DNA of 59,586 bases from Candidatus Chloroploca sp. Khr17 (GCF_004138165.1 NZ_RYFF01000020.1:33982-93567), one strand, 5' to 3'; shown: positions 14,929 through 55,020, counted from the first letter of the stretch. Notes: generated from the letters alone by a model not told the origin. Translations and numbers: made by a program.

Positions 14929-14934
14929 TCCGTT

Positions 14935-36896: not shown

Positions 36897-36931
36897 AACT
36901 GACTACAGATAAGAATACATAAGCGTACAAA

Positions 36932-38977: not shown

Positions 38978-41787
38978 GCGCCTGCTCCAATCAACATTTG
39001 CAGCACCTGGGCATCTACGGGTAAGCCCGAGTTGCGCATCCAATCAGCAGCCAAACGCAGGTAGACCCGTCGCACTTCGGCGTAGCGCGGGTGCGCACCA
39101 AATCGTGCCGTACAGATCTGCTCAATCTGGGTATGGTCCAGGGCACGATCTCCATAGCCCCCCAGAACATCTTCAATCGTTTCAGGCAAGCTATACCCAT
39201 CTTGTGCAAGCACCCACTTAGCTGCGGCATGGGGATCGTCCGGTAGGATGCTAACGGTCTGCACTTGGTTTGGCATCGGTGGCTGCCAGAGCGCCGCTGG
39301 CGGCATCTGCAACGGGCGGCGGGCCATCATCGCCTTCACGGCCTCATCGGAGTCATCAAAGATCGGGCGATCATCGGGCGTCTGAAAACGATCCAGGTAG
39401 TTGCCAACCTGCACGAAGATCGGGCGACTATCGGGGCCTCGTACAATCACTTGGCCCTGCCCGAGTGAGCGTACGTATTCGCGCTGACGCTCATTCAGGT
39501 TCATCACCTCACAGAAGAGCTTAAAGCTCTCCTGATCTTCGAGCCGATGCATGATTTTGAGGTTCGTATTGCCTAGCGCACCATTGACCAGTTGGGTTGG
39601 GATCTGCTCAGCGATCAAGATCCCTTCCCCAAACCCGCGCACCTCAGCCAAAATATTGGCGAAATCCTCTCCACCACGACTCCGTGCGTCAGCAAGATCT
39701 TCGCTACCCTTGTGTCCAGCCGACATAAGCCGATGGGCTTCTTCGATCAGAGTCATGTGCAGTTGTTTGCCGCGTTGTTCGGGTGGGAGGCGTTTGTAGC
39801 GGCTCTGCAATTCTTGGGTCAGTTGTACCAACAAAAAGGCCATAATCAGGGCGCTATCTTCGGGGGAGCCAACCCTTCCTAATTCCATGACGGTTGGCCG
39901 TGAGAGCACTACACTGAGCGGGGCTGGAGCCGTGGTATTGACAATTGTCCCTGCATTGAGCAGAAGATCACGCATGCGAATTTCGGCTGATTGGCGTACC
40001 CGGTCTTTGGCCTCCTCATCAAAGCCCGCCGTCATCAACTCGCTCACCGCAACGAGCGTCGTGTAGAACGCAGCCAAGGTGGGGGTGCCTACCCCCGGAT
40101 CGCCCCCCTTGCCCTGTTCGAGATTCCAACCTGCATCGGTATAGACCTGACGCAGGGCTGCGCGATAAATCGCTGGCAGAGGATCCCACATCGAGAAGGC
40201 GGCCATAAAACAGCGCATCAACAAACTGAGATGGGTCTTAAGCAAGATCCCCTCTGCCACGTAGAAGGGGTTGAAGCGGAAAGGCGTGGTGGTTTCATCA
40301 CCCAGCGTAAAAATTAGCAGATCGTCGGCCATTTGTGGGTCGGCCATGAGTAGCCGATAGTCCGGTTTGTCAATTGGGTACATCACCAGGAATGGTACCT
40401 GGTGGTCGGCCCAAAGTTGGGCCAGCATGTGCAGGCATGTGTTAGTTTTACCGCTTCCCGTAGCCCCTGCGATGAGACCGTGGCGGTTAAGGTCACGGAT
40501 CGGAATTTGCATATACTGGCCAGTACGCGTGCCACGATGGATGATCTCACCGAGGTTCAAACAGGGCACGTTGGTGAGCAGGCGATCGGTTGGCAAAACG
40601 AATGGCTCGTCGCGTACCTCAAGCCCGGGTAGATAACCACTCTCGGGGGGGATCGGCAGACGGAAGGCCCCCGCCGCTTGGTCGGTACTGACGAGATAGC
40701 GCAAGCGTACTGTCGCCTGATCAACGCGTGTTGGCCCCCAGGCTCCGTACTCAAGAAACGCAAAGTTATAACGTGCAATCGCCAGATCTTGATCATCCTT
40801 AGGGCTTTCGCTGGCCCATTGACGTGGCTCCGGCGTATTGTTTTGAATCAACTCGGAACCCAGCGCTTCCATTACATCATTAGGTGCATAATCCGATCCT
40901 ATCACTTGGATTTTTATGCGGAATAAATGATTTCTTTTGTTGATCAGAGGCATAAAGGTACGGGAAATATCATCAAAGCGTTCACGGCGATACAAATCAA
41001 ACCATGATTTGGACTCAACTTCTGCTGTGAGATTGCGATAACGTGAGAGCAGTAAGTTAATCTGGAGTAGCTCTTCGTGGAAGAGCACTGTTGGTCGCAA
41101 GCAGATGCTTGCGACACAGGTTTGCTCTTGTTGCACCAGCGTTTCTAAGAAGCGGCCAAAAGCAGAAGCATCAAAAACTGGACTAAAGGGATGTGGGAAG
41201 TAGCCAATGGCATCAGTACCTGCGTATGGATCAAAATCCTCAAACTTGCGAATCTCGACCAATTGGTTCATGCCTACCTGTTCAATGGGAATAGGTAACA
41301 TTGAACGCATGAAGTCGTCTTCGCCTAACGGCTCTAATGGGTAGTTGAAAGGATCTTCGAGAGGGTAGTGACTACGAAACTTGCACCAGAGCTGCCAGCA
41401 CAGATTTTTGGCGCGATTGCGGTTGGGATGGAAAGCCTTGCCAAGAAAGACAATCTCAATGGTTGGGCGATGTCCTGTCACTTGACTTGGTCGAGCAATA
41501 AACCGCAGATCGAAGGCGGCACTACCCTCGGCAATCATCCGAGCGTTGATCAAATCATTCAGGAAGCGGATTTGACGCAGCGTAATCAACCGAATACGAC
41601 TCAGTTCACCTCCACTGAGCGTACGCGTGAAATCGCTGGTTAAAAAACTAGGAATGAACGGCACCCGTGCTGCAAAGATAGCGTGCGCCCCCTGCTGGCG
41701 AGTGACTTGCACCCCACTACCCCCCCAACTCTCGGCATAGTGGAACTCATCGGGATTGCTGACGTAGATGAACGGCTCTTGCAACAT
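38974..41787 (-). CDS. HerA/FtsK-superfamily (DUF87/AAA_10-type) P-loop ATPase of 937 aa with a large N-terminal extension.
   Basis: Walker A GATGSGKTNT; Walker B plus EAH block HMTLIEEAHRL; sensor KIMHRL. AGGAAGG Shine-Dalgarno sequence upstream. Confidence 0.75.
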   Translation of the reverse strand: MLQEPFIYVSNPDEFHYAESWGGSGVQVTRQQGAHAIFAARVPFIPSFLTSDFTRTLSGGELSRIRLITLRQIRFLNDLINARMIAEGSAAFDLRFIARPSQVTGHRPTIEIVFLGKAFHPNRNRAKNLCWQLWCKFRSHYPLEDPFNYPLEPLGEDDFMRSMLPIPIEQVGMNQLVEIRKFEDFDPYAGTDAIGYFPHPFSPVFDASAFGRFLETLVQQEQTCVASICLRPTVLFHEELLQINLLLSRYRNLTAEVESKSWFDLYRRERFDDISRTFMPLINKRNHLFRIKIQVIGSDYAPNDVMEALGSELIQNNTPEPRQWASESPKDDQDLAIARYNFAFLEYGAWGPTRVDQATVRLRYLVSTDQAAGAFRLPIPPESGYLPGLEVRDEPFVLPTDRLLTNVPCLNLGEIIHRGTRTGQYMQIPIRDLNRHGLIAGATGSGKTNTCLHMLAQLWADHQVPFLVMYPIDKPDYRLLMADPQMADDLLIFTLGDETTTPFRFNPFYVAEGILLKTHLSLLMRCFMAAFSMWDPLPAIYRAALRQVYTDAGWNLEQGKGGDPGVGTPTLAAFYTTLVAVSELMTAGFDEEAKDRVRQSAEIRMRDLLLNAGTIVNTTAPAPLSVVLSRPTVMELGRVGSPEDSALIMAFLLVQLTQELQSRYKRLPPEQRGKQLHMTLIEEAHRLMSAGHKGSEDLADARSRGGEDFANILAEVRGFGEGILIAEQIPTQLVNGALGNTNLKIMHRLEDQESFKLFCEVMNLNERQREYVRSLGQGQVIVRGPDSRPIFVQVGNYLDRFQTPDDRPIFDDSDEAVKAMMARRPLQMPPAALWQPPMPNQVQTVSILPDDPHAAAKWVLAQDGYSLPETIEDVLGGYGDRALDHTQIEQICTARFGAHPRYAEVRRVYLRLAADWMRNSGLPVDAQVLQMLIGAGA

Positions 41788-41806
41788 ACGGGTGCCTTCC
41801 TGATCA

Positions 41807-43195
41807 CTAAGCGTAAGCGGTCATAACGGCTTCGACCAGCACAAGTAGATCGCACTGGGGCGTCCAGTTAGCGAGCGGTTCAGGCATGAAGCGCTGCTCT
41901 TGTCCATCGAACTCTACAAACATAGTTGGAGCCTCTTGGGGATACCGAGCCGTACAACTAAAATAGATGCCGAGGGTGTGCCCAAGCTGATCACGCAGGC
42001 TGACACTGACCAGGAAGACGTTCGCATCTTCGTGTAGGGCGGCGTTTAGTCCCTGTGCTAGCATTGCGCCTATCTCGTTGCGCAGGCGTTCGCCAGCACC
42101 TGCGCCGCTGAAGCGTGCGACGGGTGACGGTAAAGCGGGAACAGTCACACCATACATCCCTCCGAGAGTAGCTGTAGGTGGGGCTACGGCCTGTCCGGTG
42201 AGCGCCCCAAGCAACACCTGTTGAAGGTCATTGCTACCTGCCGCCGATGTCCCCATCGGCAGCATCCCCGCCTTCGCCATCTCGGTCAGGGCCAGTAAGC
42301 GTTGTCCATCTGTTTGCGCTTTATCACCAAAGACACGCGTGTACATGTCTGGATTGGTCAGCAAGAGATATTGCGGTGTCAATTCAATCATGCGCGAGAT
42401 ATTCATCTGTGTGAGCGCCTGTGCCATCGCAATCTCGGCCTGCGAGTTCGCCTGGATCTTCGCGACCTCGGCATCAGTTTGCGCCTCGCGGGTACGCATA
42501 TAAACGTCACGTAATTTCTTGTCCAGTTCTTCAGCACCCGCAATACGCGTGATCTGGACGTTCGAGACTCGTATTCCCAAGTTGTCTTCAATGCCGCGTT
42601 GCTGCAATTGCTGTGCAACCATGTAACCTGCATGACCGCCCGCCTGGAAATCCTGGTATTTAGCAATTGATGCAGTGATCGAACGAATTGATTCCATCAC
42701 CGTATCATAGAGCCTCGTGAGCGGCTGTTCGACGACAAGCGCAACGTGTTCAGGATGAATTATCTGATAACTGACTGCAACATCGAGATCAACTGGCAAT
42801 GCAATCTTCTCACCCTGGGGCGGCTGATAGAAAATCGTAAACTCCTTCGTCGTTGTTATATCCAGCGTGCGCTCACGCGTATTGACCACGTAGAGATCAA
42901 TGCGATTCATCACGGGAAACGAGAGCGCGTGATAACTCCCTTCTTGCAGCACTTCGAGCACTCTGCCATCCCCGGTCACAACGACGGTAGTGCCAGCCAT
43001 AACCCGAAAGATACGAAAGATACTGGTGAAGACATTGTTATGAACACGTACTGGACCAAAGACAAGGGGTGAATTACTTAGATCAGCAAACGGTTCACGC
43101 AGGAAGTCATCAAGCGAGCCCTGTCTGCTCGCTGCTTCCTTATCGTTAACGTGACGACGGTTTAGGGGCATGGTCTGGTCACGGTTAGTTCCCAT
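41807..43195 (-). CDS. SPFH/band-7 (stomatin/prohibitin-like) domain protein with a C-terminal UEV/RWD-like (inactive E2) domain.
   Basis: SPFH core VVVTGDGRVLEVLQEGSYH...DLDVAVSYQI plus a coiled-coil segment. C-terminal block GIYFSCTARYPQEAPTMFVEFDG carries the YPxxxP flap and lacks a catalytic Cys. Start placed at the ATG with an AGGAAGGAG Shine-Dalgarno sequence at 43195. Confidence 0.7.
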   Translation of the reverse strand: MGTNRDQTMPLNRRHVNDKEAASRQGSLDDFLREPFADLSNSPLVFGPVRVHNNVFTSIFRIFRVMAGTTVVVTGDGRVLEVLQEGSYHALSFPVMNRIDLYVVNTRERTLDITTTKEFTIFYQPPQGEKIALPVDLDVAVSYQIIHPEHVALVVEQPLTRLYDTVMESIRSITASIAKYQDFQAGGHAGYMVAQQLQQRGIEDNLGIRVSNVQITRIAGAEELDKKLRDVYMRTREAQTDAEVAKIQANSQAEIAMAQALTQMNISRMIELTPQYLLLTNPDMYTRVFGDKAQTDGQRLLALTEMAKAGMLPMGTSAAGSNDLQQVLLGALTGQAVAPPTATLGGMYGVTVPALPSPVARFSGAGAGERLRNEIGAMLAQGLNAALHEDANVFLVSVSLRDQLGHTLGIYFSCTARYPQEAPTMFVEFDGQEQRFMPEPLANWTPQCDLLVLVEAVMTAYA

Positions 43196-43229
43196 ACGAG
43201 CCAACTCCTTCCTGAGGCGCACAAGGTTG

Positions 43230-44453
43230 TTAGGTTTGATTGGGTAATATGCTAAGCTGAATGACCGGAAGATCAGCCAAGATGTCCGAAGCTTCGGCGG
43301 CTGCTTCTTGTTCACTCATCTTGAGGCTTTCGGCTACGAAAGCTGAATAGTTGCACACCGGACATTGAGCATTCTTCGGCACATCAATGAAGAGGCTCTC
43401 TAACGGCTGTTGAAAGATCCACTCCGCACGATTACCGAAGAGGAGCCAGTTCGTCGGCAGATCCGGTAGCGTGTTCTGCTTATCGCGCAGAAGCGTTAGT
43501 AACGCCATACGCGCCATTAACAGCGCAATCATACCCACATCAACCCCTAGACCTGGCTGAGCCAGTAATTCTTCCATACGTGCGGGATCTTCGTAACCCA
43601 GCGAGAAATCCTGTGTAGCGGCAGGGGGAGGGCCAAAAAAATCGGCAATGACGGTCTGAAAACAGGCGTAGCAAGCACCCTCGGAGGGAATTGCACGGAA
43701 GATATCACCCCCAAAGGCGCGATTGTAGGCTGCGGCATAGATAGCCGGGATCCCTCTTGGCCAGCACACGGTATTGACCGCCAACTTTGAGTCTTCATGA
43801 TCAGTAGCGACCACAACCAGATCACACCCGGTAACAATGGTAGCTAGTTGATCCTCATGGCCTAACACGTTCAACTCGTAGGTCTCGACGGTAATTGCGG
43901 GCGAGATGTCGTAGAGCAGATCGCGCAGGGCACGGGTCTTATAGCGCCCGATATCGTGGAGGCCACACGCATGACGTGCAATATTGTGAACTTTGAGCCG
44001 ATCAAAATCCACCAACCGCATCTGCCCTACTCCGCAACGAGCAAGCTGGCTCGCCACCACTGAACCACCTGAGCCGAGGCCAATCACGGCAATGCACGTA
44101 TTGGCGAGGCTGCTCACTTCAAAGATGCCGTGCATACGTGAGGCATAGTCAGTATGCAAACGGATGACGTTGCAGGAAATCGTTTCCCATCCAGTAGCCT
44201 TGCTTTGCCAACCAGCAACCTGATCTGGCAACTCATCGTCAATGTTGAGGACTATTTCTTCCGGGGCCAGTTCTGTTGTTGGCGGTACAGGGCTGCGATA
44301 CCAGCGACCTAGGTACGCACCGGACGCCTCAAGGATTCCCCTGATTTGCACGACATCGCCATCGTCATAACGGTAGCCGTAGAGCTTGCCCTCTGTCTGT
44401 GCAGCAGTACCAAGCAACTGGTTAATCAAGCTATCAGGAACGGTAAGAAACAT
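43230..44453 (-). CDS. E1-like ubiquitin-activating enzyme of the ThiF/MoeB/HesA family, with an N-terminal extension and a C-terminal Cys cluster.
   Basis: VIGLGSGGSVVASQLARCGVGQMRLVDFDRLKVHNIARH (GxGxxG plus a D-x-D ... NxxR block); LVVVATDH; CPVCNYS. Confidence 0.8.
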   Translation of the reverse strand: MFLTVPDSLINQLLGTAAQTEGKLYGYRYDDGDVVQIRGILEASGAYLGRWYRSPVPPTTELAPEEIVLNIDDELPDQVAGWQSKATGWETISCNVIRLHTDYASRMHGIFEVSSLANTCIAVIGLGSGGSVVASQLARCGVGQMRLVDFDRLKVHNIARHACGLHDIGRYKTRALRDLLYDISPAITVETYELNVLGHEDQLATIVTGCDLVVVATDHEDSKLAVNTVCWPRGIPAIYAAAYNRAFGGDIFRAIPSEGACYACFQTVIADFFGPPPAATQDFSLGYEDPARMEELLAQPGLGVDVGMIALLMARMALLTLLRDKQNTLPDLPTNWLLFGNRAEWIFQQPLESLFIDVPKNAQCPVCNYSAFVAESLKMSEQEAAAEASDILADLPVIQLSILPNQT

Positions 44454-44464
44454 CGGCAGACTCC

Positions 44465-45865
44465 CTATTGCAGTGGCTTCCCTTGATCTGGTTGAACCGA
44501 TGTTGGAAATACATAGCTGCGGTTGAACTCAGCGCAGAGGTCAGCCGCACTACGACAGGCCAGTTCAACTTGACGTACGATCAGACGACCTTGAAATTCG
44601 AGCAACTCACCAATGCGCTGGGATGGACGTGGTTGGGTCAAGGTTTCAAGCACATTGCGCACTACATCACGTAGGCGTATATGGGTACGCCAACCACCAG
44701 GAAAGAGTTGTTCAGTCACAATACGTACTACGTTATCATCACTCAACACGACTTGGACTTCAGGCGCTTGCTGCGGAAACTGTGAACCAGGATCAAGCTT
44801 AATAGCTTTGATCTGTAGCGGCTCTGTTTGCGCAACTGGCGCGACATTTACCATCCCCTCCGGCGTTTGCTGGGGTGCTGGGATTATCTCAGGGATATTC
44901 AGGGTCATTAGGGGCGGATGCGTAAAGGTAATCGTATACCAAACTCCGTTATCATCGCGCGTATGTACCTCCAGATGCGCCCCAGATCGCAAGGTCTGGC
45001 AGTACTGTTCCAGATCCTGTTGTTCGCGTGCAAAGCGGCCAGGAAGGGGAGGGATTGGCGGAATGCTTGCATCAGGTGGTGAACCTGAGAAAGGTGGTAT
45101 TTCAGGCGGCACGAAATCAGTCGCTGAACGACGAGTGTAAGAGGAACTTTCTAGATCGATGACCTCCAGGGTATCAGGAGGTTCCACATCTAGTGTGTAA
45201 GGTGAGGTATGTGGCTGCACCGGAGGATGGGAATGCAGATTGGCCCGGGCAGCACGGAGATCGGCCGGGTTGACTCCCCAGCGATCAGCAGTTCCTGATG
45301 TTGCGTGAGGAGGTTTTGGCGCAACTGTCTGTTGTTCTAGCGCAACCAGACCATCCAACAAGACGCGAAGGTCGCCTTCGACAAGCTCACATGGCACAGG
45401 CGTCGCACTCATCGTCTCACGGGGATAGTAGTGCCCATGGAGCAGAAATGTACCATCTTCAATGGTTACAAGTGGGGTGAAGATACCGTGGGGCAAATGA
45501 TAGGACTCATCGCTCAAGATATCGACCACCTGAAGCGTATCACCCGAACTTGGCCGATGCAAACCTGGCGGATGCTTATGCCACTCACCAACATAATCAA
45601 CGTGGTAGGTGGCGTAGTGCTGACGCCACGTTTCCAGGTCGCGTTGGCGAGCAAGTGCATCTGGAGCATAGGTATGCGCCCGTCGGTCGGCATTGCTACC
45701 AGGACCAGAGGCTGCCACAACGACGAGGTGGAGTCCATCGGGGAGTTGGAACATACGTCCAACCAGGATGCCGCCGGTCTCACGTCCAGGGCTCGTACAT
45801 GCCTCGTCGTACATCCGCTGATAGACATCTTGTTGGGCCAGATAGACGGTATTTGGTACTGGCAT
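44465..45865 (-). CDS. JAMM/JAB (MPN+) metalloprotease, a deubiquitinase-like protein, with a long Pro-rich C-terminal extension.
   Basis: ETGGILVG (Glu) and GEWHKHPPGLHRPSSGD (HxHx7SxxD). The start follows the E2 stop by 1 nt. Confidence 0.8.
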   Translation of the reverse strand: MPVPNTVYLAQQDVYQRMYDEACTSPGRETGGILVGRMFQLPDGLHLVVVAASGPGSNADRRAHTYAPDALARQRDLETWRQHYATYHVDYVGEWHKHPPGLHRPSSGDTLQVVDILSDESYHLPHGIFTPLVTIEDGTFLLHGHYYPRETMSATPVPCELVEGDLRVLLDGLVALEQQTVAPKPPHATSGTADRWGVNPADLRAARANLHSHPPVQPHTSPYTLDVEPPDTLEVIDLESSSYTRRSATDFVPPEIPPFSGSPPDASIPPIPPLPGRFAREQQDLEQYCQTLRSGAHLEVHTRDDNGVWYTITFTHPPLMTLNIPEIIPAPQQTPEGMVNVAPVAQTEPLQIKAIKLDPGSQFPQQAPEVQVVLSDDNVVRIVTEQLFPGGWRTHIRLRDVVRNVLETLTQPRPSQRIGELLEFQGRLIVRQVELACRSAADLCAEFNRSYVFPTSVQPDQGKPLQ

Positions 45866-45866
45866 G

Positions 45867-46322
45867 TTAGTCTGCCTCAATTCCAGGCCAATAGGTTTTC
45901 CCTGACTCAAGCCAGGTTTCGTAGGCAAAGAACCAAGCGGCGGCTACCGCGATCACGGTTGCTGCCGTGGTTTGCTGGGCAAACGAACGATCACCAGGGT
46001 AGTAGAGGCATAGGTGTCCATCGTTATACTGGTGCTTGAGGCGGCCTGCTTGCTCGTCCTTCCAGACGGTAATCGCTGGGTTAATGGGATAAACTTTAGG
46101 CGGATCATCGGGAAAGTTGTCAGGATAGTAGAGTGCAATCTCATAGCGCCTTTCGCGATTACTCTCTAAGGTGCCGATCCAGACCAACTGGTTACTATCA
46201 CGCACGAGCTGAAACTGGGGAAAGCGCGTTTCCATAGCTCTCTTTTCCAGTACGAGTCGTGCGGGATTAAGGTCATACCACGCTGCATACCAGCGCATCG
46301 GACGGAGAATAGTTTGGCCCAT
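45867..46322 (-). CDS. E2-like ubiquitin-conjugating enzyme with a prokaryotic UBC fold and a catalytic Cys.
   Basis: ALYYPDNFPDDPPKVYPINP flap plus HQYNDGHLCLYYPGD. This is analogous to the UBC HPN...GxICL active site. Confidence 0.75.
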   Translation of the reverse strand: MGQTILRPMRWYAAWYDLNPARLVLEKRAMETRFPQFQLVRDSNQLVWIGTLESNRERRYEIALYYPDNFPDDPPKVYPINPAITVWKDEQAGRLKHQYNDGHLCLYYPGDRSFAQQTTAATVIAVAAAWFFAYETWLESGKTYWPGIEAD

Positions 46323-46387
46323 CGTAACTACCCTTATTCGTTGCTGCTTAACAGTGCTTTAGATGTCTATGTCCACAAGTGGATCGT

Positions 46388-46588
46388 TTATGCTCGTGTA
46401 AATAGGGCAAACCAGCGCTGCGGTTTAAGCACTGTCTTGCTCTGTGGATCGGTCTGCGCGACCTTGGGATCTTCTGGGACGTGCATCTTGCCATCCGGAC
46501 TGACGACAACTTCCTGTGCGGTGGCAAGACGCTTCTTAAGTTCTTCCAGGCTGGATTGTGGGCTACGAGGGGGTTGTGGCGTGCTCAT
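46388..46588 (-). CDS. Small hydrophilic ORF of 66 aa in the 318-nt gap between the membrane UEV gene and the E2 gene. Its coding status is doubtful.
   Basis: MSTPQPPRSPQSSLEELKKRL... There is no beta-grasp-like hydrophobic pattern and no C-terminal GlyGly. Confidence 0.2.
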   Translation of the reverse strand: MSTPQPPRSPQSSLEELKKRLATAQEVVVSPDGKMHVPEDPKVAQTDPQSKTVLKPQRWFALFTRA

Positions 46589-46640
46589 GGTGGTGTACCT
46601 CCTGGGATTTGCTGACACGACTGGTATACGTACAAGGGAA

Positions 46641-47357
46641 TTAGATAATACGTTCGGTATATTGTGCCCAAACCGACTGTTGCGTCGGTGGCTGGTTCGT
46701 GACTTGAGCATAAGAAATGAGGCCCAAAAGGTTGTTGACCACTGCCAGCAGTGAACTATTGCCATTCCAACTGCGCAGAACAGACGAATCAAGTGCGAGG
46801 TGATGTTCGGCTAGTTCACCACAGGCATCAAACCCGAGCATGGTGGCAATGAGCTGCGGTGCGATAATTGGATAGTCATCCGTACAAATGAGATGGATCG
46901 AGACATTCTCCCCATCACTCCGTGCCACCCGGATCTGAACACAGTACTCTTCGACATCCGGGCGCCCGGCGAGGCTCACCGCCTCGTAACCATTACTGCG
47001 TAACTTCGCTACTTCTTGCGTCAAACGTTGCACCACATTTATTGGGGTAACATCAATCACTTGGCGACTTGCAACTGGGGTTCCGGCTGGTGTAAAACCA
47101 CCCGCGCCGGAACTCCAGGTTGGTACCTGCGATGAAAGCGTCGAAGTGTCTTCATGGATTGGCATTGGAGGCGGGCGCATGGTGGGACTAGCCGGTGGGA
47201 GAATGAACGCTTTACCCTGTTTTGATGTTACTTCTGATTGGCTCGTTGTGGCGCGTCGCCCACTCCCGCCTCGTTGGAGTACGAAGACAACGAGGATCAG
47301 GACGACGAGAACGAGGACGCCCCCACCAGCAATGATCAGCAGAATTGATGTATCCAA
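46641..47357 (-). CDS. N-terminally membrane-anchored protein with a C-terminal UEV/RWD-like domain.
   Basis: TM segment ILLIIAGGGVLVLVVLILVVFVL. The UEV-like block EEYCVQIRVARSDGENVSIHLICTDDYPIIAPQL has no Cys at the catalytic position. TTG start preceded by an AGGAGG Shine-Dalgarno sequence. Confidence 0.6.
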   Translation of the reverse strand: MDTSILLIIAGGGVLVLVVLILVVFVLQRGGSGRRATTSQSEVTSKQGKAFILPPASPTMRPPPMPIHEDTSTLSSQVPTWSSGAGGFTPAGTPVASRQVIDVTPINVVQRLTQEVAKLRSNGYEAVSLAGRPDVEEYCVQIRVARSDGENVSIHLICTDDYPIIAPQLIATMLGFDACGELAEHHLALDSSVLRSWNGNSSLLAVVNNLLGLISYAQVTNQPPTQQSVWAQYTERII

Positions 47358-47365
47358 GACGCCTC

Positions 47366-49150
47366 CTAGCGGGGTATGATGCGTACCAGATAAGTCGCAC
47401 TGGTACTCAGATCCAGGTTCGCTTCGCCTACCATCGGCAATTCCGCCAGGCTCAGCAAGTAACGTCCACTGGGTAGGGCCGCACTCGCGACACCTGTCTG
47501 ATCAGTCACGATCTGGCGATTGCCGCTCGATCCCACAAGGTTGAGTACCAGATTAGAGGTAGGTGCAATAATCAGCAGATTGACCGGATCGCCATTGATC
47601 TGCGTTGCGAGACGACGATCCGTAAGCAAACGCGTCCATTCAGATGCATCGAGTCGGGTTGTAATGATTTGATAGGCACTCGTGCTTGCAAGCAAAGCTT
47701 CGGCTTCGCGCTTGAGTTGGCGCGCACTTTCCCCACGATCCTCTGCAACCTGAGCAAGGCTAAGTGCGGCGTTGGCCTGAGCGAGCGCGTCGGTGCCAAC
47801 TGTCCCGCCGCGTTCGAGCAAGGCTAGACCGTAACCGACATAAGAATCGTAGAGCCACTGCTCGACGGTGCGTACCGCAGGGTCGCTTGTGTTAGGCCTT
47901 AATTGCACGGCCTGTTCAAGTTCGCTGATCAGGGCGGGCCATGTAGCGACACTTGCATCGCGGAATTGTGTCGCCCGTGCAATCCACTTCAAACGATCAG
48001 CTAGTCCTTCAAGATCTTGCTCCAGAGTTGCAGCAAGTACATAATGCTCGTGAGACTCAATGACATCCGTGGCAAAGAGGAGGTCACCCCATGCCAGCTG
48101 GGCTTGTGCCAAGCGGGTCTTGACGCCTATCGCTGCTTCAGGACTCTGCGCTTCAGGGTGGAGAACATGGATCTGTTCAAGCAGGGCTACTACTTGTGCC
48201 CAACTTGCCGTGGTATTCACTGCCCATAGTTGCTCGGCCTCAGTCCAGAGCGTCTTCGTCCGGGCTTCGATAACAGCAACTAGTCCAGCCTGAGCATCAG
48301 AGGAGGCTGGATCAAGCGCGAGAGCCTGGCGAAACATGGCTTCCGCCTGATCAAGTTGGTTCGCTTCGAGGAGTGCGGACGCATAACGCTCATAGGCGGT
48401 GATGAGCGGGATTGGATTGGCAACCAGGCTACCGCAACTACCACCCACCCCGCTCTGACCACGGTTGTGCATTGCTTCGAGGGTATGGGTTACTTGCGCG
48501 AGGGATTCGCGATCACCGACTGCATAGGCTTGAGCCACGAACTGCTGCTCGGAAGCGCACGGATCGTAGAGCAAGGTATAGTAGAGTAGCAACCCCCCGG
48601 CAATGAGCAGGGTGACACCTCCACCTACCACGGCTAAGATCTTCCCTGTGGCGGAACGACGCGTTGGGGTAGGAAGGGGACGTTCTTCACGAGGTGGCAA
48701 CTCCTTAGGGAATGGCACATCAAGTGGTGGCATGGGGGCCACCGGTTCAGCAATGCGTGCAAGCCGTAGATTGGAACTCTGTACGCTGTCCTGGACTTCC
48801 AGAACGATTTCGTAGAGCATCTGGCGACTCGACCAACTGAGACGGGTTTTTGACTCGACATCAATCGGGAGTTCTTGTAACTCGCCGTAGCTTGTTGTGC
48901 CGGGTGTGGTCACGGTGACCACAAGATTGGGCGCCGTAGCTGGAAAATTTGCATCAAGCTGGAAGTAGAGATGCACCGGCTGTGGCCCTTCGTGCGTGTC
49001 ACGAACCAACTCTACTGTTAAGTAGTAGCGCTGAGCACTCGCGTCCTGCTGGAGGTCGCAAGCATAGCCCATATCACGGATGGCCTTGACCTCTTGACCA
49101 ATGCGCTCAGCGTGACTTTGGTCAGCGGCCATGGGGGGGAGGGATGACAT
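47366..49150 (-). CDS. N-terminal UEV/RWD-like domain, then one TM helix, then an extracytoplasmic TPR-like helical-repeat region. 594 aa.
   Basis: YYLTVELVRDTHEGPQPVHLYFQLDANFPATAPNLVV; TM segment ILAVVGGGVTLLIAGGLLLYYTLLY; TPR-like repeats. Confidence 0.65.
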   Translation of the reverse strand: MSSLPPMAADQSHAERIGQEVKAIRDMGYACDLQQDASAQRYYLTVELVRDTHEGPQPVHLYFQLDANFPATAPNLVVTVTTPGTTSYGELQELPIDVESKTRLSWSSRQMLYEIVLEVQDSVQSSNLRLARIAEPVAPMPPLDVPFPKELPPREERPLPTPTRRSATGKILAVVGGGVTLLIAGGLLLYYTLLYDPCASEQQFVAQAYAVGDRESLAQVTHTLEAMHNRGQSGVGGSCGSLVANPIPLITAYERYASALLEANQLDQAEAMFRQALALDPASSDAQAGLVAVIEARTKTLWTEAEQLWAVNTTASWAQVVALLEQIHVLHPEAQSPEAAIGVKTRLAQAQLAWGDLLFATDVIESHEHYVLAATLEQDLEGLADRLKWIARATQFRDASVATWPALISELEQAVQLRPNTSDPAVRTVEQWLYDSYVGYGLALLERGGTVGTDALAQANAALSLAQVAEDRGESARQLKREAEALLASTSAYQIITTRLDASEWTRLLTDRRLATQINGDPVNLLIIAPTSNLVLNLVGSSGNRQIVTDQTGVASAALPSGRYLLSLAELPMVGEANLDLSTSATYLVRIIPR

Positions 49151-49207
49151 AGCAACTACTCTCTTGTAAGCGACGCGAATGCCCAGCGTTGACGAGCCTT
49201 ACGAAAC

Positions 49208-50017
49208 TCAGATCCGGCCATAGAGATCAGTAACAATCGTTGCCAGACGACACGAACCGTCCCAGGGGAAGAAGATTCCGGAACCAATATTGAGCGAGGT
49301 GCCATGGCGCTCGACAACCACGGAAGGTGGTTGCTGAGGGTAAGTTGGCTCACACACCATATAGATCGTCGTCCCATCCTGTGGTCGGGTAACGGTTACG
49401 CAGCACGTGCCGTCTTGGAGGGTATTGATCTGGACGGTGCCAAATTGGGCCAGTGCTATGCGCTCACCAGCGATACGCTCGGCGAGATCCAAACTAGGAC
49501 GAGGTGTGGCTCCCCCTACCGTCTGGTGCGGGCTAGGTGGTGGATCAGGTGGTAGTAATGGCCCCGAACTACGTAGCCCAGCAGTAGGGGAGGCGTTCGT
49601 TCTAGCTATGAGTCCGCTCGTCCGGAGATTGCCGTCCGACCTAGAGGCTATAGTAGGCCCGCGGCCCATTGAACTGCCAAGCACGAGGCCAAGCAGTAGG
49701 CCGGGAGCTGTCCCAAGCAGCATTGCCACACTGTACATACGCAAACTCCCAAGGGCTAGTCCTAGATTATCGCTCAGCAGCATATTTAGGACACCACAAA
49801 GCAGCACAAAGACGAGCGCACTAGCTGCGGGGCCAACGAAGATCGCCCAGTGGTAACCTTGTGCGACACGCCCGCGTAAGAGTAGACCTCCACCCAGGCC
49901 CCCGATGATCAGCCCGATCATTGCCAGAGCTAGAACCACCAGCGGGTTCGTGCTGATCAATAGGCCCATGCCCAGGAAGAAGAGACAACTGACGATGATA
50001 ACCATTGCTGCAAGCAT
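49208..50017 (-). CDS. Four-TM membrane domain fused to a C-terminal UEV/RWD-like domain.
   Basis: N-terminal 4 hydrophobic helices. C-terminal block TTIYMVCEPTYPQQPPSVVVERHG. Confidence 0.6.
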   Translation of the reverse strand: MLAAMVIIVSCLFFLGMGLLISTNPLVVLALAMIGLIIGGLGGGLLLRGRVAQGYHWAIFVGPAASALVFVLLCGVLNMLLSDNLGLALGSLRMYSVAMLLGTAPGLLLGLVLGSSMGRGPTIASRSDGNLRTSGLIARTNASPTAGLRSSGPLLPPDPPPSPHQTVGGATPRPSLDLAERIAGERIALAQFGTVQINTLQDGTCCVTVTRPQDGTTIYMVCEPTYPQQPPSVVVERHGTSLNIGSGIFFPWDGSCRLATIVTDLYGRI

Positions 50018-50020
50018 GGG

Positions 50021-52735
50021 TTATTCCTCCAGGCTAACAGTAATTTTGTAGTATTTCGATTTCTCGAAGCTAAACTCAATTGCTGTTGATCGAATTTTTG
50101 TTTCACCACCTACTGATTCCACTGTCAGTCTATTGCGGCCATCAATATTCATAAACTTAAAGCTTACACGAATTTCAGAATCTCCTCCTCTTAAAATTGC
50201 ATCACTAGGCCCTACGAGAAGTACATTAACATTTGGAGGCGGCGTTCCACCATTGGCTTCGGTCATCTCATTCTCTGAAATTTCACTAATTGCGATTCTA
50301 TATAGGGGCCATGTAGCTTCCTCAGCCGTTTGGGTTTGGGTTTGGGCTTGCGCCAGAGCCTCCGCTTGTGCGGTAGCAGCAACAGCAGAGGCTGTGGCTT
50401 CAGCATTAGCGGTGGCACTAGCAGCAGCAGCAGCAGCAGCAGTAGCGCTGGCCTGGGCCACAGCCGTGGTCGTTTGCGCCTGTGCGGTTGCGGCGGGGTT
50501 AGGTGTGGGGCGGGGTGTAGAGACATCAGCAGCCAAGGCACGATTAGCACTTTCCTTTAGCTTGGCAACTGTCTCTGCTGTCTCTGCTGTCTCTGCTGAG
50601 CTCGGCCTGACGGCTTCACTACCAAAGTCGTCGAGTTGCTCCAGCAAGCTTAATGCGTCTAAGACCGCACGCCAATCAGTACGATTGAGCGCCTCTTCAA
50701 CTTCAGACCATAACTCATCGGCCTGCGTCTGGGTAGTATTGGCATCATCAATGGACTGATCTAATGCATCATCACCACGCTCATTCGTACGCAAAAAATC
50801 TGCATTTACCCTGGCTTCATTGATCTGAGCCTGTGCATCGTCAAGCTTCCCATCCCGCCAGAGAGCACGGGCATATTTTAGGCGGGTCTCAGACTGGATT
50901 TTAGCCACGTCTGATATGCGTGGATCACCTCCTTGAAATGCAACAGGATCCGGTAAAAGGCCAGTAGTTGCTACAATTTCGTCAAGGATCCTCACCGCCT
51001 GTTGCCAATTACCATCGTCTACTGCTTTATCGTAGCTGGCCCACTCGGCCTCTAACCGCTGCACGTCACCAAGAGCATCAACAGCTTGACGGATCTCAGT
51101 ACGTAGTGCGCTGAGTTCCTCCTGTAAGGAGCGCGAGATTTGGCTGTCATTGCCTTCCGGCCAATTAGTAGATAACAGCGTTCGTGCCTCTACCAGTTTC
51201 TGTGCTTCCACGTTTTCAGTATCAATCTTTGTACGCACCTCGGCCATGAGCACTTTCACGAACCAATCGTTAGCTCGTTGCTTCGCTTCGTCATCCATAC
51301 TCAAAGCAGCACGCTGAGCCTGCTTCGCTACCTCGCGTGCGAGGTCGAACTCAGGTGGCTCAGCAGCAAGATAATCGTTGATTAACAGTAGGCGCGCATC
51401 ATGGATCAATTGCGTGATGTCGCGTCCTCGTGGGTCCGTAGTTTCACCTTCTTTAAGTCGTTCCTGTAACTTAGCAATGCGCTCTGAAAGCGAGAGGTTA
51501 GGATTATCTATTTCGATCCACATAGCGATGGCGGTCTGGGTTTGGGTAGCCTGAAGAGCAGCAGTCGCCGTTGCGTCGCTCGCTGTCTGATCCAGAGTTA
51601 AAGTTGCGCTAGGTGTCTGTTCGATCCCAGTCAATGGTTCCTGGCCCTGTGGTTGACCAACCTGCTCACCACTGGACCAGATCTGCCAACCGACAAAGCC
51701 AAATAAACCAAGCGCTACGAGTGATAAGGCCGCAACGAGAACAACAAAGCCTCCATTCTGGCGTTTCCTTGCCGCAGTTCTCGATGGCGGCGAAACCGGG
51801 CTAGGCGTTGATGGATGCACGACAGGAGCAATGGGCAGTGCAGCGGCGACGGGCATCGCACGAAGAACGCCCTCGACTACATCAACCAAGTGTGAATTGC
51901 CGTTATGATAGGTCCACTGGTTAATCACACCATCATCGTTCTGTGGCAACGCAGTGCCAGCCCGTTCAATGGCTACCAGGGCCGGTGGTACTCGTGGGAA
52001 GTCATTCGGGGCCATCAGATAGATCGTGAGATCAGGATGCTGGTTCGTGCGGACTTCAAAGAAGAAATTCGTATCTTGGCTCTTCAGCGTCACCTGATAG
52101 CCCCGCTCACGAAGCAAACGATGCTCTTCGCCAATACGATCATTGATCGGTGGGCTGCTTGCACCATCAGCTCGCTCGCGCTGGATCAGAGGATGCTCAT
52201 CATCAATTTCATGCACACGTGAAGCCTGAATTTCTACAAAAGGCTCACGCCGTTGCGCCATTTGGCGACTCATGTAGTAGTAACGGATGGTAAACTCACC
52301 GCGATCAACCCAGACAATCGGGTTAATGATCTCATTGATTTTATAGGCCGGATCGCGAAAGACGGCATGGGCAGTGGCGACATCACCCGCACTAAATGTC
52401 TGGTAACGTGCAGGATGTTTATGCCATGTGCCGATATAATCTGTTTTCGGGTAGCGGGCGTGATATTCTTGTAACTTACCGTTAACATAGTCAATGTCGG
52501 GATTAAATTCCACCGGATGGTGATACGCATTTTCACCCGGCCCAGTGGCTGCAATGATCAATAGCTGAACGATCTCTTCCCCATCAAGACGTCGTCCAAC
52601 CAGGATGCCCCCAGTCTCATTTTCCAAACTCGTTGTACTACCTCGCCGGGCTTCCTCTTCAATCAGGCGGCGGGCTGAACGCGTGATATAAATCTTACCA
52701 GGGAGCGGTGACTTCTGGGTACTGAGCTGTGACAT
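50021..52735 (-). CDS. First gene of the island, 904 aa. It has a JAMM/JAB protease domain, a UEV/RWD-like domain, one TM helix, and a long coiled-coil/Ala-rich extracytoplasmic region with a small C-terminal beta-domain.
   Basis: ETGGILVG and GTWHKHPARYQTFSAGD (JAMM); FFFEVRTNQHPDLTIYLMAPNDFPRVPPALV (UEV flap); TM segment FVVLVAALSLVALGLFGFVGWQIW. The last 270 nt are very low in GC. Confidence 0.75.
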   Translation of the reverse strand: MSQLSTQKSPLPGKIYITRSARRLIEEEARRGSTTSLENETGGILVGRRLDGEEIVQLLIIAATGPGENAYHHPVEFNPDIDYVNGKLQEYHARYPKTDYIGTWHKHPARYQTFSAGDVATAHAVFRDPAYKINEIINPIVWVDRGEFTIRYYYMSRQMAQRREPFVEIQASRVHEIDDEHPLIQRERADGASSPPINDRIGEEHRLLRERGYQVTLKSQDTNFFFEVRTNQHPDLTIYLMAPNDFPRVPPALVAIERAGTALPQNDDGVINQWTYHNGNSHLVDVVEGVLRAMPVAAALPIAPVVHPSTPSPVSPPSRTAARKRQNGGFVVLVAALSLVALGLFGFVGWQIWSSGEQVGQPQGQEPLTGIEQTPSATLTLDQTASDATATAALQATQTQTAIAMWIEIDNPNLSLSERIAKLQERLKEGETTDPRGRDITQLIHDARLLLINDYLAAEPPEFDLAREVAKQAQRAALSMDDEAKQRANDWFVKVLMAEVRTKIDTENVEAQKLVEARTLLSTNWPEGNDSQISRSLQEELSALRTEIRQAVDALGDVQRLEAEWASYDKAVDDGNWQQAVRILDEIVATTGLLPDPVAFQGGDPRISDVAKIQSETRLKYARALWRDGKLDDAQAQINEARVNADFLRTNERGDDALDQSIDDANTTQTQADELWSEVEEALNRTDWRAVLDALSLLEQLDDFGSEAVRPSSAETAETAETVAKLKESANRALAADVSTPRPTPNPAATAQAQTTTAVAQASATAAAAAAASATANAEATASAVAATAQAEALAQAQTQTQTAEEATWPLYRIAISEISENEMTEANGGTPPPNVNVLLVGPSDAILRGGDSEIRVSFKFMNIDGRNRLTVESVGGETKIRSTAIEFSFEKSKYYKITVSLEE

Positions 52736-53469: not shown

Positions 53470-53472
53470 GCC

Positions 53473-54956: not shown

Positions 54957-54984
54957 GCCCAATGCGCTGTAACAAAGATGTTTT

Positions 54985-55005: not shown

Positions 55006-55020
55006 CTTGATGTATCTCCA

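Follow-up and report, generated by a model that had tools for sequence, protein, structure and literature searches.

The window, a stretch of 59,586 nucleotides from the filamentous green bacterium Candidatus Chloroploca sp. Khr17, contains a single tight operon (38974-52735, minus strand). Its products include an intact ThiF-type E1, a CBASS-type E2 that retains the catalytic cysteine, two intact JAMM peptidases, and six paralogous proteins that each carry one Cys-less RWD/UEV-like UBC-fold domain. This operon type is a rare conjugation system of Chloroflexota and a few cyanobacteria. Sequence comparison suggests, at about even confidence for the explanation as a whole, that the conjugation system is tethered to the membrane, with a 66-residue protein serving as the tag and the RWD-like domains as non-catalytic docking or reader modules. 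If the candidate tag is real, the operon represents an undescribed bacterial relative of ubiquitin signalling.

The operon and its conjugation enzymes

The system had previously been placed at 41807-52735, whose bounds coincide with the stop of the SPFH gene and the start of the 904-residue gene; the operon itself continues downstream, to at least 38974 (Table 1).

Table 1. Features of the operon and its downstream neighbours, in window coordinates.
Feature	Nucleotides	Residues	Strand	Description
Two downstream genes recurring with the system	35601..37774		-	Orthologues downstream in relatives
431-aa TM and TPR protein	35601-36896		-	Orthologues downstream in L001, L002, L005, L007
280-aa acidic protein	36932-37774		-	Orthologues downstream in L001, L011
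937-aa HerA/FtsK-type P-loop ATPase	38974..41787		-	Pfam HerA_C 4.1e-8
p502	41807..43315		-	SPFH/Band 7 (residues ~105-289), helical linker, C-terminal RWD-like domain
p502 RWD-like domain	~41813-42097	407-501	-	HMM matches
E1-like adenylating enzyme (ThiF fold)	43230..44453		-	Pfam ThiF 5.3e-35
p487	44465..45928		-	JAMM peptidase (residues ~32-150), motif intact; Pro-rich linker
p487 RWD-like domain with insert	~44633-45043	~296-432	-	Followed by long C-terminal helix
Active E2, 151 aa, CBASS-associated type	45867..46322		-	Catalytic Cys105 in HQYNDGHLCLYYP
Conserved 66-aa protein, candidate modifier	46388..46588		-	AGGAGG ribosome-binding site
p238	46641..47357		-	N-terminal TM helix (residues ~5-27), then Pro-rich linker
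p238 RWD-like domain	~46707-47036	108-217	-	
p594	47366..49150		-	N-terminal RWD-like domain, one TM helix, outward TPR-like region, beta-rich C-terminus
p594 RWD-like domain	~48776-49114	13-125	-	HMM matches; Pfam RWD sub-threshold
p594 TM helix		~171-190	-	K/R count 4 inside, 0 outside
p269	49208..50017		-	Four TM helices, then C-terminal RWD-like domain
p269 RWD-like domain	~49211-49489	177-269	-	HMM matches
p904	50021..52735		-	JAMM peptidase (residues ~14-162), motif E..HKHx7SxxD intact
p904 RWD-like domain	~51845-52147	197-297	-	RWD-like HMM match
p904 TM helix (one)		~330-350	-	Flanks: 4 K/R on N side, 0 on C side
p904 outward part		~550 after TM	-	Helical, low-complexity, beta-rich

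The E2 matches the PADLOC E2 model PDLC00858 (1.9e-24) and retains the motif HQYxDGxLCLYYP, invariant in the nine orthologues checked. Its best PDB relative is the 'E2' chain 8hsb_B (E 1.3e-3), with LCL aligned. The E1 matches the E1 part of Cap2 in PADLOC (5.7e-41) and is related to UBA5, MoeB, MccB and Cap2 in the PDB. It carries a conserved N-terminal domain of about 100 residues from an unknown family, two CxxC pairs and an invariant Cys163, with invariance assessed across 13 orthologues.

Both peptidases have JAMM motifs that are intact by direct reading of the sequence, and both match the PADLOC CBASS JAB model (p904, 7.6e-18, with Pfam Prok-JAB at 30 bits against a cut-off of 25; p487, 2.3e-15). 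As deposited, p487 has 466 residues and starts 21 residues later, at about nucleotide 45865. The JAB-RWD-like fusion is not obligatory, since in some relatives the JAB is short and has no RWD-like domain, or the second JAB is missing.

The ATPase matches PADLOC mad8 (1.1e-18) and also HerA models; its N-terminal half, about 400 residues, is uncharacterised. The gene for the SPFH-RWD-like protein is followed by the ATPase gene in every locus that has the former and enough downstream sequence (the window, L001, L003, L004, L008, L009, L011 and L015). This SPFH protein, p502, scores 34.6 bits against Pfam Band_7 (cut-off 23.6) and likely starts at nucleotide 43195, giving a 462-residue form that is present in the protein library. 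Further downstream, the 431-residue protein matches Pfam TPR_2 (30 bits; cut-off 27). No recognisable effector was found in the window. The CBASS affiliation of the enzymes, the conserved 66-residue gene and the correct sixth flap block were all absent from the sequence-only reading.

Fold and predicted membrane placement of the RWD-like domains

The sequence-only reading proposed that six proteins share a block of the Cys-less RWD/UEV kind, and both the blocks and the UBC-fold assignment hold. All seven [YF]P-x2-[AP]P blocks, in the six accessory proteins and the E2, were found. The pattern occurs 11 times in the window (425 six-frame ORF translations, 58,290 residues): eight occurrences lie within the seven operon proteins and three in ORFs outside those genes, two of these on the opposite strand. 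The tentative assignment of the sixth block to YTITFTHPPLM in p487 was incorrect. That segment is strand beta2; the true flap block is IKAIKLDPGSQFPQQAPEVQVV, with its motif at residue 384, and an insert of about 35 residues separates beta2 from beta3.

Each accessory protein carries one copy of the domain, which spans about 100 residues. Five of the copies are mutually similar in BLASTP (25-40 bits). A profile built solely from relatives that share under 50% identity with the window copies recovers these five at 67-81 bits; in the window it next matches p487 at E 1.4e-5 and, at E 1.6e-4, the active E2. The family comprises 164 clusters among 1.84 billion representatives and has no entry in Pfam, NCBIfam or PADLOC. 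Genome and metagenome loci of sufficient length encode two to seven RWD-like proteins, grouped with the same E2, E1 and JAB genes.

The domain consists of an N-terminal helix, a beta-meander of four to five strands and C-terminal helices, with a flap of the YPxxxP type between beta3 and beta4. The two prolines of the flap are present in every one of the 136 domains, behind an aromatic residue. PDB searches with 5-domain and 56-domain profiles returned mostly or only UBC-fold chains. Among 56 family members, 35 match Pfam RWD and 10 match UEV, with E-values that are all weak (1e-4 or worse) and with the single match for which a score is reported falling below its cut-off. In the window, the best match to Pfam RWD (PF05773) or UEV (PF05743) is p594, at 18.1 bits against a cut-off of 22.8 (E 0.0031; profile positions 5-111 of 112). 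In hhalign, the family aligns with the operon's own E2 over alpha1-beta4 (91% probability, E 1.1e-6). The domain is RWD-like by fold and lies outside Pfam RWD/UEV membership.

The same five architectures recur throughout the family. In the window, the domain is joined to a JAMM peptidase (twice), an SPFH scaffold, a four-helix membrane module and single-pass proteins. The fusions to JAB, SPFH, transmembrane and TPR-like modules that had been proposed are present; the TPR component is sub-threshold in p594 (Pfam TPR_14, 21.2 bits; cut-off 23.5) and undetected in p904. Based on a hydropathy scan and charge counts, the positive-inside rule predicts that the four membrane-anchored copies all lie in the cytoplasm, in agreement with the predicted inner-face location. 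For p269, an RGR in the TM2-TM3 loop and an R-rich segment past TM4 predict an N-in/C-in topology, and its orthologues also have four TM helices. The companion claim, that large TPR or coiled-coil regions face outward, stands in part: the long helical or TPR-like portions of p904 and p594 are predicted to lie outside, in just two of the six proteins. Neither p487 nor p502 has a predicted membrane helix; a scan of p502 for a hydrophobic segment found none.

A candidate tag and a proposed docking role for the RWD-like domains

The best-conserved gene of the operon encodes the 66-residue protein, which is 82% identical to its Oscillochloris copy. It consists of an N-terminal SLEELKKRL..VVV..G..h.P segment, a variable linker and, at the C-terminus, LKPQRWF plus six non-conserved residues. 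Every locus long enough to contain it has a homologue immediately upstream of the E2 gene; these are the window, L001-L008 and the longer metagenome loci L009, L011, L015, L016, L019 and L020. The family comprises 52 clusters, none named and none with a Pfam domain; lengths range from 53 to 123 residues, with conserved parts totalling about 40 residues around the linker. The 66-residue protein itself has no similarity in Pfam, PADLOC or the PDB. It appears too short and too linker-rich for a beta-grasp domain.

The C-terminal boundary of the conserved region is invariant. The end motif [KR]PxRW[FY] is present in 49 of the 52 clusters, forms the exact C-terminus in 25, and is otherwise followed by non-conserved residues (0-11 across the family). 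Elsewhere, a tandem di-module occupies the same operon position, the module is fused in frame to the E2 in L022 and L023, and in L015 it is fused upstream of a CHAT domain, a caspase-like protease. By analogy, these forms show the behaviour of ubiquitin precursors. Taken together, sequence conservation and gene arrangement suggest that the 66-residue protein is probably a tag. Its conserved end is aromatic rather than glycine, a type of terminus that no E1-E2 cascade is known to use.

This aromatic end also fits another explanation, which we regard as possible if doubtful. Here, the small protein would be a detached regulatory piece of the E2 N-terminal extension that competes for, or mimics, a site on the E1 or an RWD-like domain, and the system would conjugate some other moiety, or none. 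In keeping with this, the E2 N-terminus, LRPMRWYAAWY, resembles the small protein's C-terminal motif and is matched by the small-protein HMM; many loci have [KR]PxRW[YF] at this position, and L022 and L023 encode the two proteins as one polypeptide. The residues past RW[FY] in free small proteins often start with Ala, as in the RWYAAW of the E2, and could be relics of gene fission rather than propeptides. However, L006, L007 and L008 have lost the motif from the E2, whereas the small protein keeps its own in nearly every cluster. The modules of the tandem and CHAT-fused forms each end at the motif, which is hard to square with E2 mimicry, and two JAMM peptidases require a substrate. The tag reading also has precedents: in Bub operons, Ubl-E2 fusions are cleaved by a JAB-E1 protein, and in E2-CBASS the CD-NTase C-terminus becomes covalently linked to the E2.

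If the small protein is the moiety handled by the operon's enzymes, the reaction would likely involve: trimming by a JAMM peptidase to the ...[KR]PxRW[FY] end; adenylation by the E1; and transfer to the E2 cysteine. As docking partners of the RWD-like domains, the E2 itself, its charged form and the small protein are candidates. Such docking would gather the peptidases, the membrane-spanning proteins and the SPFH and HerA-type ATPase module into a single assembly at the inner face of the membrane. More speculatively, the outward regions might signal an event at the envelope, for instance a phage attack or damage to the wall, and the output might be a conflict or stress response, as hinted by the relative with a CHAT protease fused to the small module.

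One possibility would be that the RWD-like domains are pure assembly modules, pairing with one another like kinetochore RWD proteins to build a hetero-oligomeric membrane complex with no contact to the E2 or small protein. This appears unlikely: the family is found only in this operon type, beside this set of E2, E1 and JAB; its profile resembles the operon's own E2 most closely; and canonical RWD and UEV domains have E2s or ubiquitin as partners, as in FANCL-Ube2T, RWDD3-Ubc9 and Mms2-Ubc13.

Less probable still is a role for the RWD-like proteins as conjugation substrates, with attachment of the small protein or another moiety acting as a switch for the membrane, SPFH or JAB modules. Precedents exist in CBASS, where Cap2 primes its CD-NTase, and the first acceptors observed in both CBASS and Bub were the system's own components; moreover, about half of the domains (62 of 136) lie at the extreme C-terminus of their protein. 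Against this role, Lys is conserved nowhere in the domain (at most 12% after the flap, and no column reaching 40%), and the C-terminal residues of the domain show no conservation.

The sequence-only reading stated that the domains lack a downstream catalytic cysteine, and this proves true family-wide: across 136 domains, Cys does not exceed 7% in any column after the flap. Just one Cys is frequent (64%); it sits ahead of the flap, where beta3 ends, and p904 and p594 have Ala or Leu instead. No Ser-His pair is conserved in the family, and post-flap Ser does not exceed 59% at any column. It is highly improbable that the domains are cryptic E2s using a non-cysteine nucleophile, as BubB uses Ser/His, since 41% of domains (two window copies included) have Pro, Leu, Gly or Asp in place of the most frequent post-flap Ser, no post-flap column in the 136 domains has His above 12%, and a canonical Cys E2 is already present in the operon. 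From these residue patterns we infer that the RWD-like domains are non-catalytic. A precedent for caution is the Cys-less E2-like BubB, formerly miscalled inactive: the Cys-less E2/RWD-like proteins of Bub (6e) were later shown to act through a Ser/His oxyester.

Relation to known conjugation systems

The operon's enzymes resemble those of type II and E2-only CBASS: the E2, E1 and both JABs score best against PADLOC models for those proteins, the closest solved E2 (8hsb_B) is deposited as 'Type VI secretion protein' and 'E2', and the E2 of one relative carries Pfam PF26395 (E2-CBASS). In CBASS, the activated moiety is the flexible C-terminus of another protein, with no classical Ubl. Unlike type II CBASS, this operon gave no match to a CD-NTase/SMODS or cyclic-nucleotide effector (Pfam, NCBIfam and PADLOC on operon genes; Pfam on flanking genes). 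Its E1 and E2 are separate genes, in contrast to the Cap2 E1-E2 fusion, and its two JABs carry extra domains. CBASS lacks RWD-like paralogues, an SPFH protein, a HerA-type ATPase and a small RW[FY]-ended protein, all of which are found here.

The arrangement of separate genes in the order tag, E2, JAB, E1 is shared with the Bil (Bacterial ISG15-like) operons of type I/II (type 6d of Iyer 2006), including the position of the candidate tag gene immediately upstream of the E2. However, BilA is a beta-grasp Ubl of one to three domains, whereas the small protein here is mostly linker and without similarity to a solved structure, and Bil is described as four soluble proteins without an RWD-like membrane set. 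In Bub ('6E'; type 6e of Iyer 2006), BubB is the system's single working E2 and uses Ser/His; here, a normal Cys E2 stands alongside six copies that look non-catalytic. The operon also gave no Pfam match to the DUF6527 serine protease (BubE) or to a beta-grasp tag, and its E1, E2 and JAB are separate genes where Bub has a JAB-E1 or E2-E1 fusion.

The fold is that of the eukaryotic RWD (GCN2, RWDD1-3, FANCL) and UEV (Mms2/Uev1, Tsg101, Vps37A) domains and of BRE in BRISC. With eukaryotic non-catalytic UBC-fold proteins the family also shares the YPxxxP flap that separates beta3 from beta4, and it has likewise lost the catalytic Cys. BRE chains are among the PDB profile matches of the family, and the combination of a JAMM peptidase with UEV-type domains is reminiscent of BRCC36 with BRE in BRISC. 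Unlike the eukaryotic domains, this family is bacterial and operon-bound, its sequence similarity to them falls under every Pfam threshold, and its fusions to membrane, SPFH and JAB modules are not seen there. The paralogue expansion mirrors the one thought to have occurred during eukaryogenesis, and it is plausible that the RWD-like domains arose from the operon's E2, independently of the eukaryotic ones.

Fold and catalytic status of the RWD-like domains

Each of the six accessory proteins encoded in the operon (p904, p269, p594, p238, p487 and p502, numbered by length in residues) carries one RWD-like domain of about 100 residues. The sequence-only reading had placed a flap-like block in each, and these blocks are real: the pattern [YF]P-x2-3-[AP]P occurs once as the flap, between beta3 and beta4, in every accessory protein, with a second, unrelated match in p594 and one match in E2. 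Across 425 six-frame ORF translations the window holds 11 matches: 8 in seven operon proteins, and 3 in ORFs outside these seven genes, two of them on the opposite strand. This concentration, together with independent profile scores, led to rejection of chance motif occurrence as an explanation of the flap blocks. For the 487-aa JAB protein, the tentatively proposed sixth block was misplaced: YTITFTHPPLM is strand beta2, and the true flap, beyond an insert of about 35 residues between beta2 and beta3, is IKAIKLDPGSQFPQQAPEVQVV.

Five of the window domains are related pairwise at 25-40 bits (BLASTP). Their consensus comprises: a helix, ERIxxExxxL; three strands; IYhxCxxxYPxxPP; a strand, hhVE; and then W and LxxxVxxV. 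A non-circular profile, from which relatives sharing 50% or more identity with the window copies were left out, gave five domains scores of 67-81 bits; p487 (E 1.4e-5, split over two pieces) and then the active E2 (E 1.6e-4) ranked next among the window ORFs. The five-domain alignment returned no matches in a word-indexed search, which reflects a limit of sensitivity, since an exhaustive HMMER search of 1.84 billion representatives gave 164 clusters at E up to 1e-3.

The assignment of the blocks to the UBC fold is supported by profile matches in the PDB, a structural model and alignment with the operon E2. The five-domain profile retrieved mainly UBC-fold chains: an E2 (E 2.7e-4), FANCL, BRE, the GCN2 RWD domain and VPS37A. 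A 56-sequence profile gave 66 PDB matches at E up to 1, and all 60 among the matches listed are UBC-fold. The AlphaFold2 model of the p238 domain (pLDDT 93.7, pTM 0.86) has the topology H-E-E-E-flap-E-E-h-H, and the RWD-like family aligns with the operon E2 over alpha1-beta4 (91% probability, E 1.1e-6). Among 56 family members, Pfam matches were to RWD (35/56), UEV (10/56) and Prok-E2_B (8/56), all with weak E-values; the window's own RWD match, in p594, lies below the cut-off. Neither this domain nor the small protein encoded upstream of E2 is recognised by Pfam, NCBIfam or PADLOC above their thresholds. As the PDB, Pfam, model and alignment results agree, the operon combines six Cys-less UBC-fold domains with one active E2.

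The absence of a downstream catalytic Cys, also part of the sequence-only reading, extends to the family: among 136 domains, no column after the flap exceeds 7% Cys, 12% His or 12% Lys. The only frequent Cys (profile column 52, 64% of the family) closes strand beta3, with the YP flap four residues further on; it corresponds to p238 Cys162, p269 Cys222 and p502 Cys454. It was rejected as an active site because it lies ahead of the flap and because p904 and p594 have Ala or Leu in its place; its role is probably structural. A Ser six residues before the invariant Trp is present in 59% of domains and is elsewhere Pro, Leu, Gly or Asp, including in two window copies. No partner His for it was found in the 136 domains, and it was rejected as a general nucleophile on both grounds. 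Cryptic non-Cys E2 activity is a rival with a precedent: in 6e/Bub operons, Cys-less proteins first classed as "inactive E2/RWD-like" have since proved to be functional E2s that act through Ser333/His335. Here, with no conserved Cys, His or Lys after the flap and a replaceable Ser that has no His, the six domains are regarded as predicted non-catalytic.

Operon organization, conservation and membrane topology

The genes of the operon are tightly packed, with spacing that ranges from slight overlaps to 65 nt. The p487 product is 100% identical to a protein annotated in Candidatus Chloroploca sp. Khr17, the source of the window. Between positions 35000 and 53300, promoter-like sites were fewer than shuffled sequence yields, and no terminator of informative quality was seen. 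The G+C content between about 36000 and 56000 is 0.48-0.54, with a minimum of 0.478 at 36-38 kb, as compared to about 0.55-0.65 across the first 34 kb of the window, a pattern compatible with horizontal acquisition of an island that includes the operon. The flanks hold phosphoenolpyruvate carboxylase on one side and, on the other, a HicAB toxin-antitoxin pair and a sigma factor. The Cys/His-rich protein that follows the sigma factor could be its anti-sigma factor. Downstream of the ATPase, two genes encode very basic, low-complexity products. One is conserved in Oscillochloris, at that position, over its C-terminal half. The other, of 213 aa, is not conserved there at the same position, and its weak match to a CDI-toxin restriction-endonuclease-like domain (E 0.0015, below threshold) was set aside. 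The large surface-type proteins and the housekeeping 2-oxoglutarate dehydrogenase genes in the first half of the window all appear unrelated to the operon.

Coordinates of the operon, its surroundings and two features of related loci
Feature	Position	Strand	Remarks
Operon	52735 down to at least 38974	-	Order: p904, p269, p594, p238, 66-aa gene, E2 (151 aa), p487, E1 (407 aa), p502, 937-aa ATPase
Region of the sequence-only reading	41807-52735	-	Upstream three-quarters of the operon
p904 low-complexity stretch	50260-50560		Residues ~725-825, predicted outward part; long Ala/Thr/Gln stretch (AQAQTTTAVAQASATAAAAAAASATANAE...)
Small protein gene	46388-46588	-	66 aa, between p238 and E2; AGGAGG ribosome-binding site
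E1 gene	43230-44453	-	
Basic, low-complexity product	38411-39043	-	Downstream of ATPase; C-terminal half conserved
213-aa basic, low-complexity product	37749-38390	-	Downstream of ATPase
Downstream gene recurring with the system	36932-37774		
Downstream gene recurring with the system	35601-36896		
HicA toxin/HicB antitoxin pair	53098-53793	+	Immediately upstream of operon; Pfam HicA_toxin 3.9e-7, HicB 1.4e-21
ECF-type sigma factor, then 267-aa Cys/His-rich protein	54153-56084	+	Sigma70_r2, r4_2; second protein without Pfam match
Very large secreted/surface-type proteins	34-30030	+	Kelch beta-propeller + PPC, VWA + fn3, CARDB + PPC, TIG + peptidase C13
709-aa CHAT protein (locus L015)	13147-15276		Contains small module
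Second E1 gene (locus L019)	13240-14451	+	Rhodanese-ThiF (MoeZ-like), ~1.2 kb downstream of the system's E1

Related loci comprise seven from genomes, all Chloroflexota and including Oscillochloris trichoides DG6, one from a cyanobacterium (M5B4) and 19 from metagenomes; relatives of E2 were not found on viral contigs. Every sufficiently long locus has 2-7 RWD-like proteins around the same E2, E1 and JAB genes. The family occurs, apart from fragments, in five architectures: SPFH-RWDl; JAB-RWDl-TM-long; RWDl-TM-long; TM-RWDl; and 3-4TM-RWDl (RWDl, RWD-like). An ATPase of about 940 aa follows SPFH-RWDl in every locus that has it with enough downstream sequence, and loci without SPFH-RWDl show no ATPase. 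The operon is conserved as a unit, in which the enzyme set accompanies six UBC-fold domains, predicted to be cytoplasmic and non-catalytic, on partners that stay the same. The conserved gene content and the five architectures indicate that the RWD-like "expansion" is an old, fixed feature of one rare system, and therefore not a recent amplification in this genome. Two proteins, P0001 and P0002, have joined forms: a 449-aa protein unites p594-type and p238-type halves, and a 469-aa protein unites a p904-type JAB-RWD-like part with a p594-type domain. Either a close relative has genuine fusions of this kind or frameshifts have misled the gene calling.

Placement relative to the membrane was predicted simply, from hydropathy scans and counts of K/R in 15-residue flanks. 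In both p904 and p594, four K/R residues precede the TM helix and none follow it; in p238, K/R residues follow the N-terminal helix; and p269 has four helices, as do its orthologues, with RGR in a cytoplasmic loop and an Arg-rich stretch behind the fourth helix. No hydrophobic helix was found in p487 or p502. Every membrane-anchored RWD-like domain is thereby predicted to be cytoplasmic, in agreement with the inner-face location first proposed from sequence, and this placement fits both the need of E1 for ATP and the position of the JAB in p904, which is fused on that side of the membrane. The large outward TPR/coiled-coil regions claimed alongside hold in part: p904 and p594 have large outward parts, but only these two, and TPR signal is sub-threshold and confined to p594. 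A trans-envelope signalling role is plausible. The low-complexity stretch of p904 gives rise to long spurious ORFs on both strands.

The small protein and the conjugation enzymes

The small gene directly upstream of E2 had been overlooked. Its product ends in LKPQRWF followed by 6 non-conserved residues. Homologues lie directly upstream of E2 in the window, in loci L001-L008 and in six longer metagenome loci (L009, L011, L015, L016, L019, L020), and are present in every related locus long enough to show the gene; in the cyanobacterial record the homologue was left uncalled. Between Chloroploca and Oscillochloris the small protein is 82% identical, the highest value in the operon, as compared to 78% for E2 and 37-40% for p238 and p904. 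The family comprises 52 clusters, all unnamed and without a Pfam domain. The motif [KR]PxRW[FY] is present in 49 of these, forming the exact C-terminus in 25 and trailed by 1-11 non-conserved residues in the others, after a linker of about 10 to 60 residues. A profile of the family found only chance-level matches in the PDB (BamE and NEMO coiled coils, E 0.4 or worse).

The gene organization bears on a possible role as a modifier. Tandem head-to-tail di-modules occur in three clusters, where each copy ends in KPTRWF and three residues follow the second; the one di-module examined (P0197) takes the place of the small gene ahead of an E2-CBASS gene. The small module is fused in frame to E2 in loci L022 and L023 (junction ...LKPQRWY|SWFRSNPRRL). 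The L015 copy is part of a longer protein, where it precedes a CHAT caspase-like domain (Pfam 4e-21) and closes with ...VRPIRWF|AGP. Precursors that hold several tags, fusions of a tag to another protein and C-termini that carry a cap are hallmarks of the gene organization of ubiquitin-type tags. Bacteria offer direct precedent: Bub operons encode Ubl-E2 fusions that the JAB-E1 protein cleaves, and in E2-CBASS the CD-NTase C-terminus is covalently linked to E2. The N-terminal ~100 residues of the L015 CHAT protein score weakly against the RWD-like family and may represent a seventh kind of RWD-like domain.

Other observations argue against a tag: a beta-grasp domain would need longer conserved parts than the small protein has; its conserved end carries an aromatic residue, not Gly; and the N-terminus of E2 (residues 6-17, LRPMRWYAAWY in the window) repeats [KR]PxRW[FY] in many orthologues. 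This copy suggests an ancestral small-protein-E2 fusion that may later have split. Ala is often the first residue behind the motif in free small proteins, as it is in the E2 continuation, so that such tails could be relics of fission. Against this objection, the motif is lost from E2 in L006, L007 and L008 while near-invariant in the small protein. A rival view takes the small protein as an E2-mimicking regulator.

The enzymes with which such a tag would work are E2, two JABs and E1. E2 matches the PADLOC CBASS E2 models (1.9e-24), and its motif HQYxDGxLCLYYP is invariant in nine orthologues; the nearest solved relative, 8hsb_B, deposited as "E2", aligns at the catalytic LCL. Both JABs exceed the Pfam Prok-JAB threshold, match CBASS JAB models and, as read from sequence, keep E...HxHx7SxxD. 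E1 has the ThiF fold (5.3e-35), with its best match in the E1 part of Cap2 (5.7e-41), two CxxC pairs, an invariant Cys163 and intact adenylation-site residues. The E1/E2/JAMM set is thus complete, intact and of CBASS lineage. No CD-NTase or nucleotide-activated effector was matched among the operon genes scanned. Residues 1-110 of E1 form a conserved N-terminal domain (near-invariant G22, G26, D30, G32, G49 and W51) without a family match, which might be a degenerate JAB or other docking domain. The L019 locus encodes a second E1.

Proposed scheme and relation to known systems

The RWD-like domain is about as likely as not to serve the system as a shared module for docking or reading. Eukaryotic RWD and UEV domains act with E2s and ubiquitin, and the RWD-like domain is found only in this operon type; both points favor docking or reading, whereby the domains would gather the membrane-spanning proteins, both peptidases and the module of SPFH protein and ATPase around E2, E1 and the small protein at the inner membrane face. 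Rivals to this reading are scaffold-only pairing of the RWD-like domains and a role of the RWD-like proteins as substrates.

The small protein can tentatively be proposed as a tag: a JAMM peptidase would trim it after RW[FY], E1 would adenylate it, and E2 would carry it on Cys105. Taken together, the system would be a ubiquitin-style writer/eraser/reader built around a non-ubiquitin tag with an aromatic C-terminus, with the RWD-like domains as its readers or E2 docks; this composite scheme is judged less likely than not. It would involve: a tag composed of a short N-terminal module, a flexible linker and a ...[KR]PxRW[FY] end, not a beta-grasp fold; its excision from tandem or fusion precursors by the JAMM peptidases; activation by the ThiF-type E1 and transfer to the CBASS-type E2; and six RWD-like domains that would equip membrane sensors, a scaffold protein and peptidases with dedicated tag readers or docking sites for E2. 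More speculatively, an envelope event may be sensed by p904 and p594, through their outward regions, and by the TM-TPR protein encoded downstream, with a conflict or stress response as output. Hints in this direction are the CBASS-type enzymes, the L015 CHAT fusion, the adjoining toxin-antitoxin pair, the low-G+C island and the patchy distribution.

If the tag proposal holds, E1-E2 chemistry would not be bound to the beta-grasp fold or a Gly-Gly end, and a conjugated small protein would mean an E1-E2 system acting on a non-ubiquitin-fold substrate with its own reader family. The adaptor proposal alone, if true, would supply a compact, testable model of UEV/RWD adaptors organizing conjugation at a membrane.

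Real protein conjugation has recently been demonstrated for bacterial E1/E2/JAB operons (CBASS, Bil, Bub), which provide the best view on the origin of ubiquitin signalling. To our knowledge, each system in the families described so far relies on a single E2-fold protein, and "readers" occur in none of them. Operon types 6a-6e were described by Iyer et al. 2006, with RWD-like Cys-less E2 domains already noted in type 6e; Kaur et al. 2020 makes no mention of this operon, and as the literature covered is incomplete, an earlier description is possible. Later work characterised CBASS Cap2/Cap3, E2-CBASS, Bil and Bub. In contrast to this operon, their published descriptions lack multiple non-catalytic E2-fold paralogues, membrane anchoring, SPFH/HerA partners and this small protein. 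Features that define CBASS and Bub are absent here, and the small protein shows no Pfam, PADLOC or PDB similarity that would make it a beta-grasp tag like that of Bil operons; the operon thus probably belongs to none of the three, and it is filed among bacterial ubiquitin-like conjugation operons with CBASS-lineage enzymes. Within the literature searched, what is new for bacteria is: six non-catalytic E2-fold paralogues, an expansion otherwise tied to eukaryogenesis (RWD, UEV, kinetochore RWDs); machinery physically coupled to membrane-spanning proteins, an SPFH scaffold and a HerA-type ATPase; and a candidate tag that is ubiquitin-like in gene organization, not in sequence or size.
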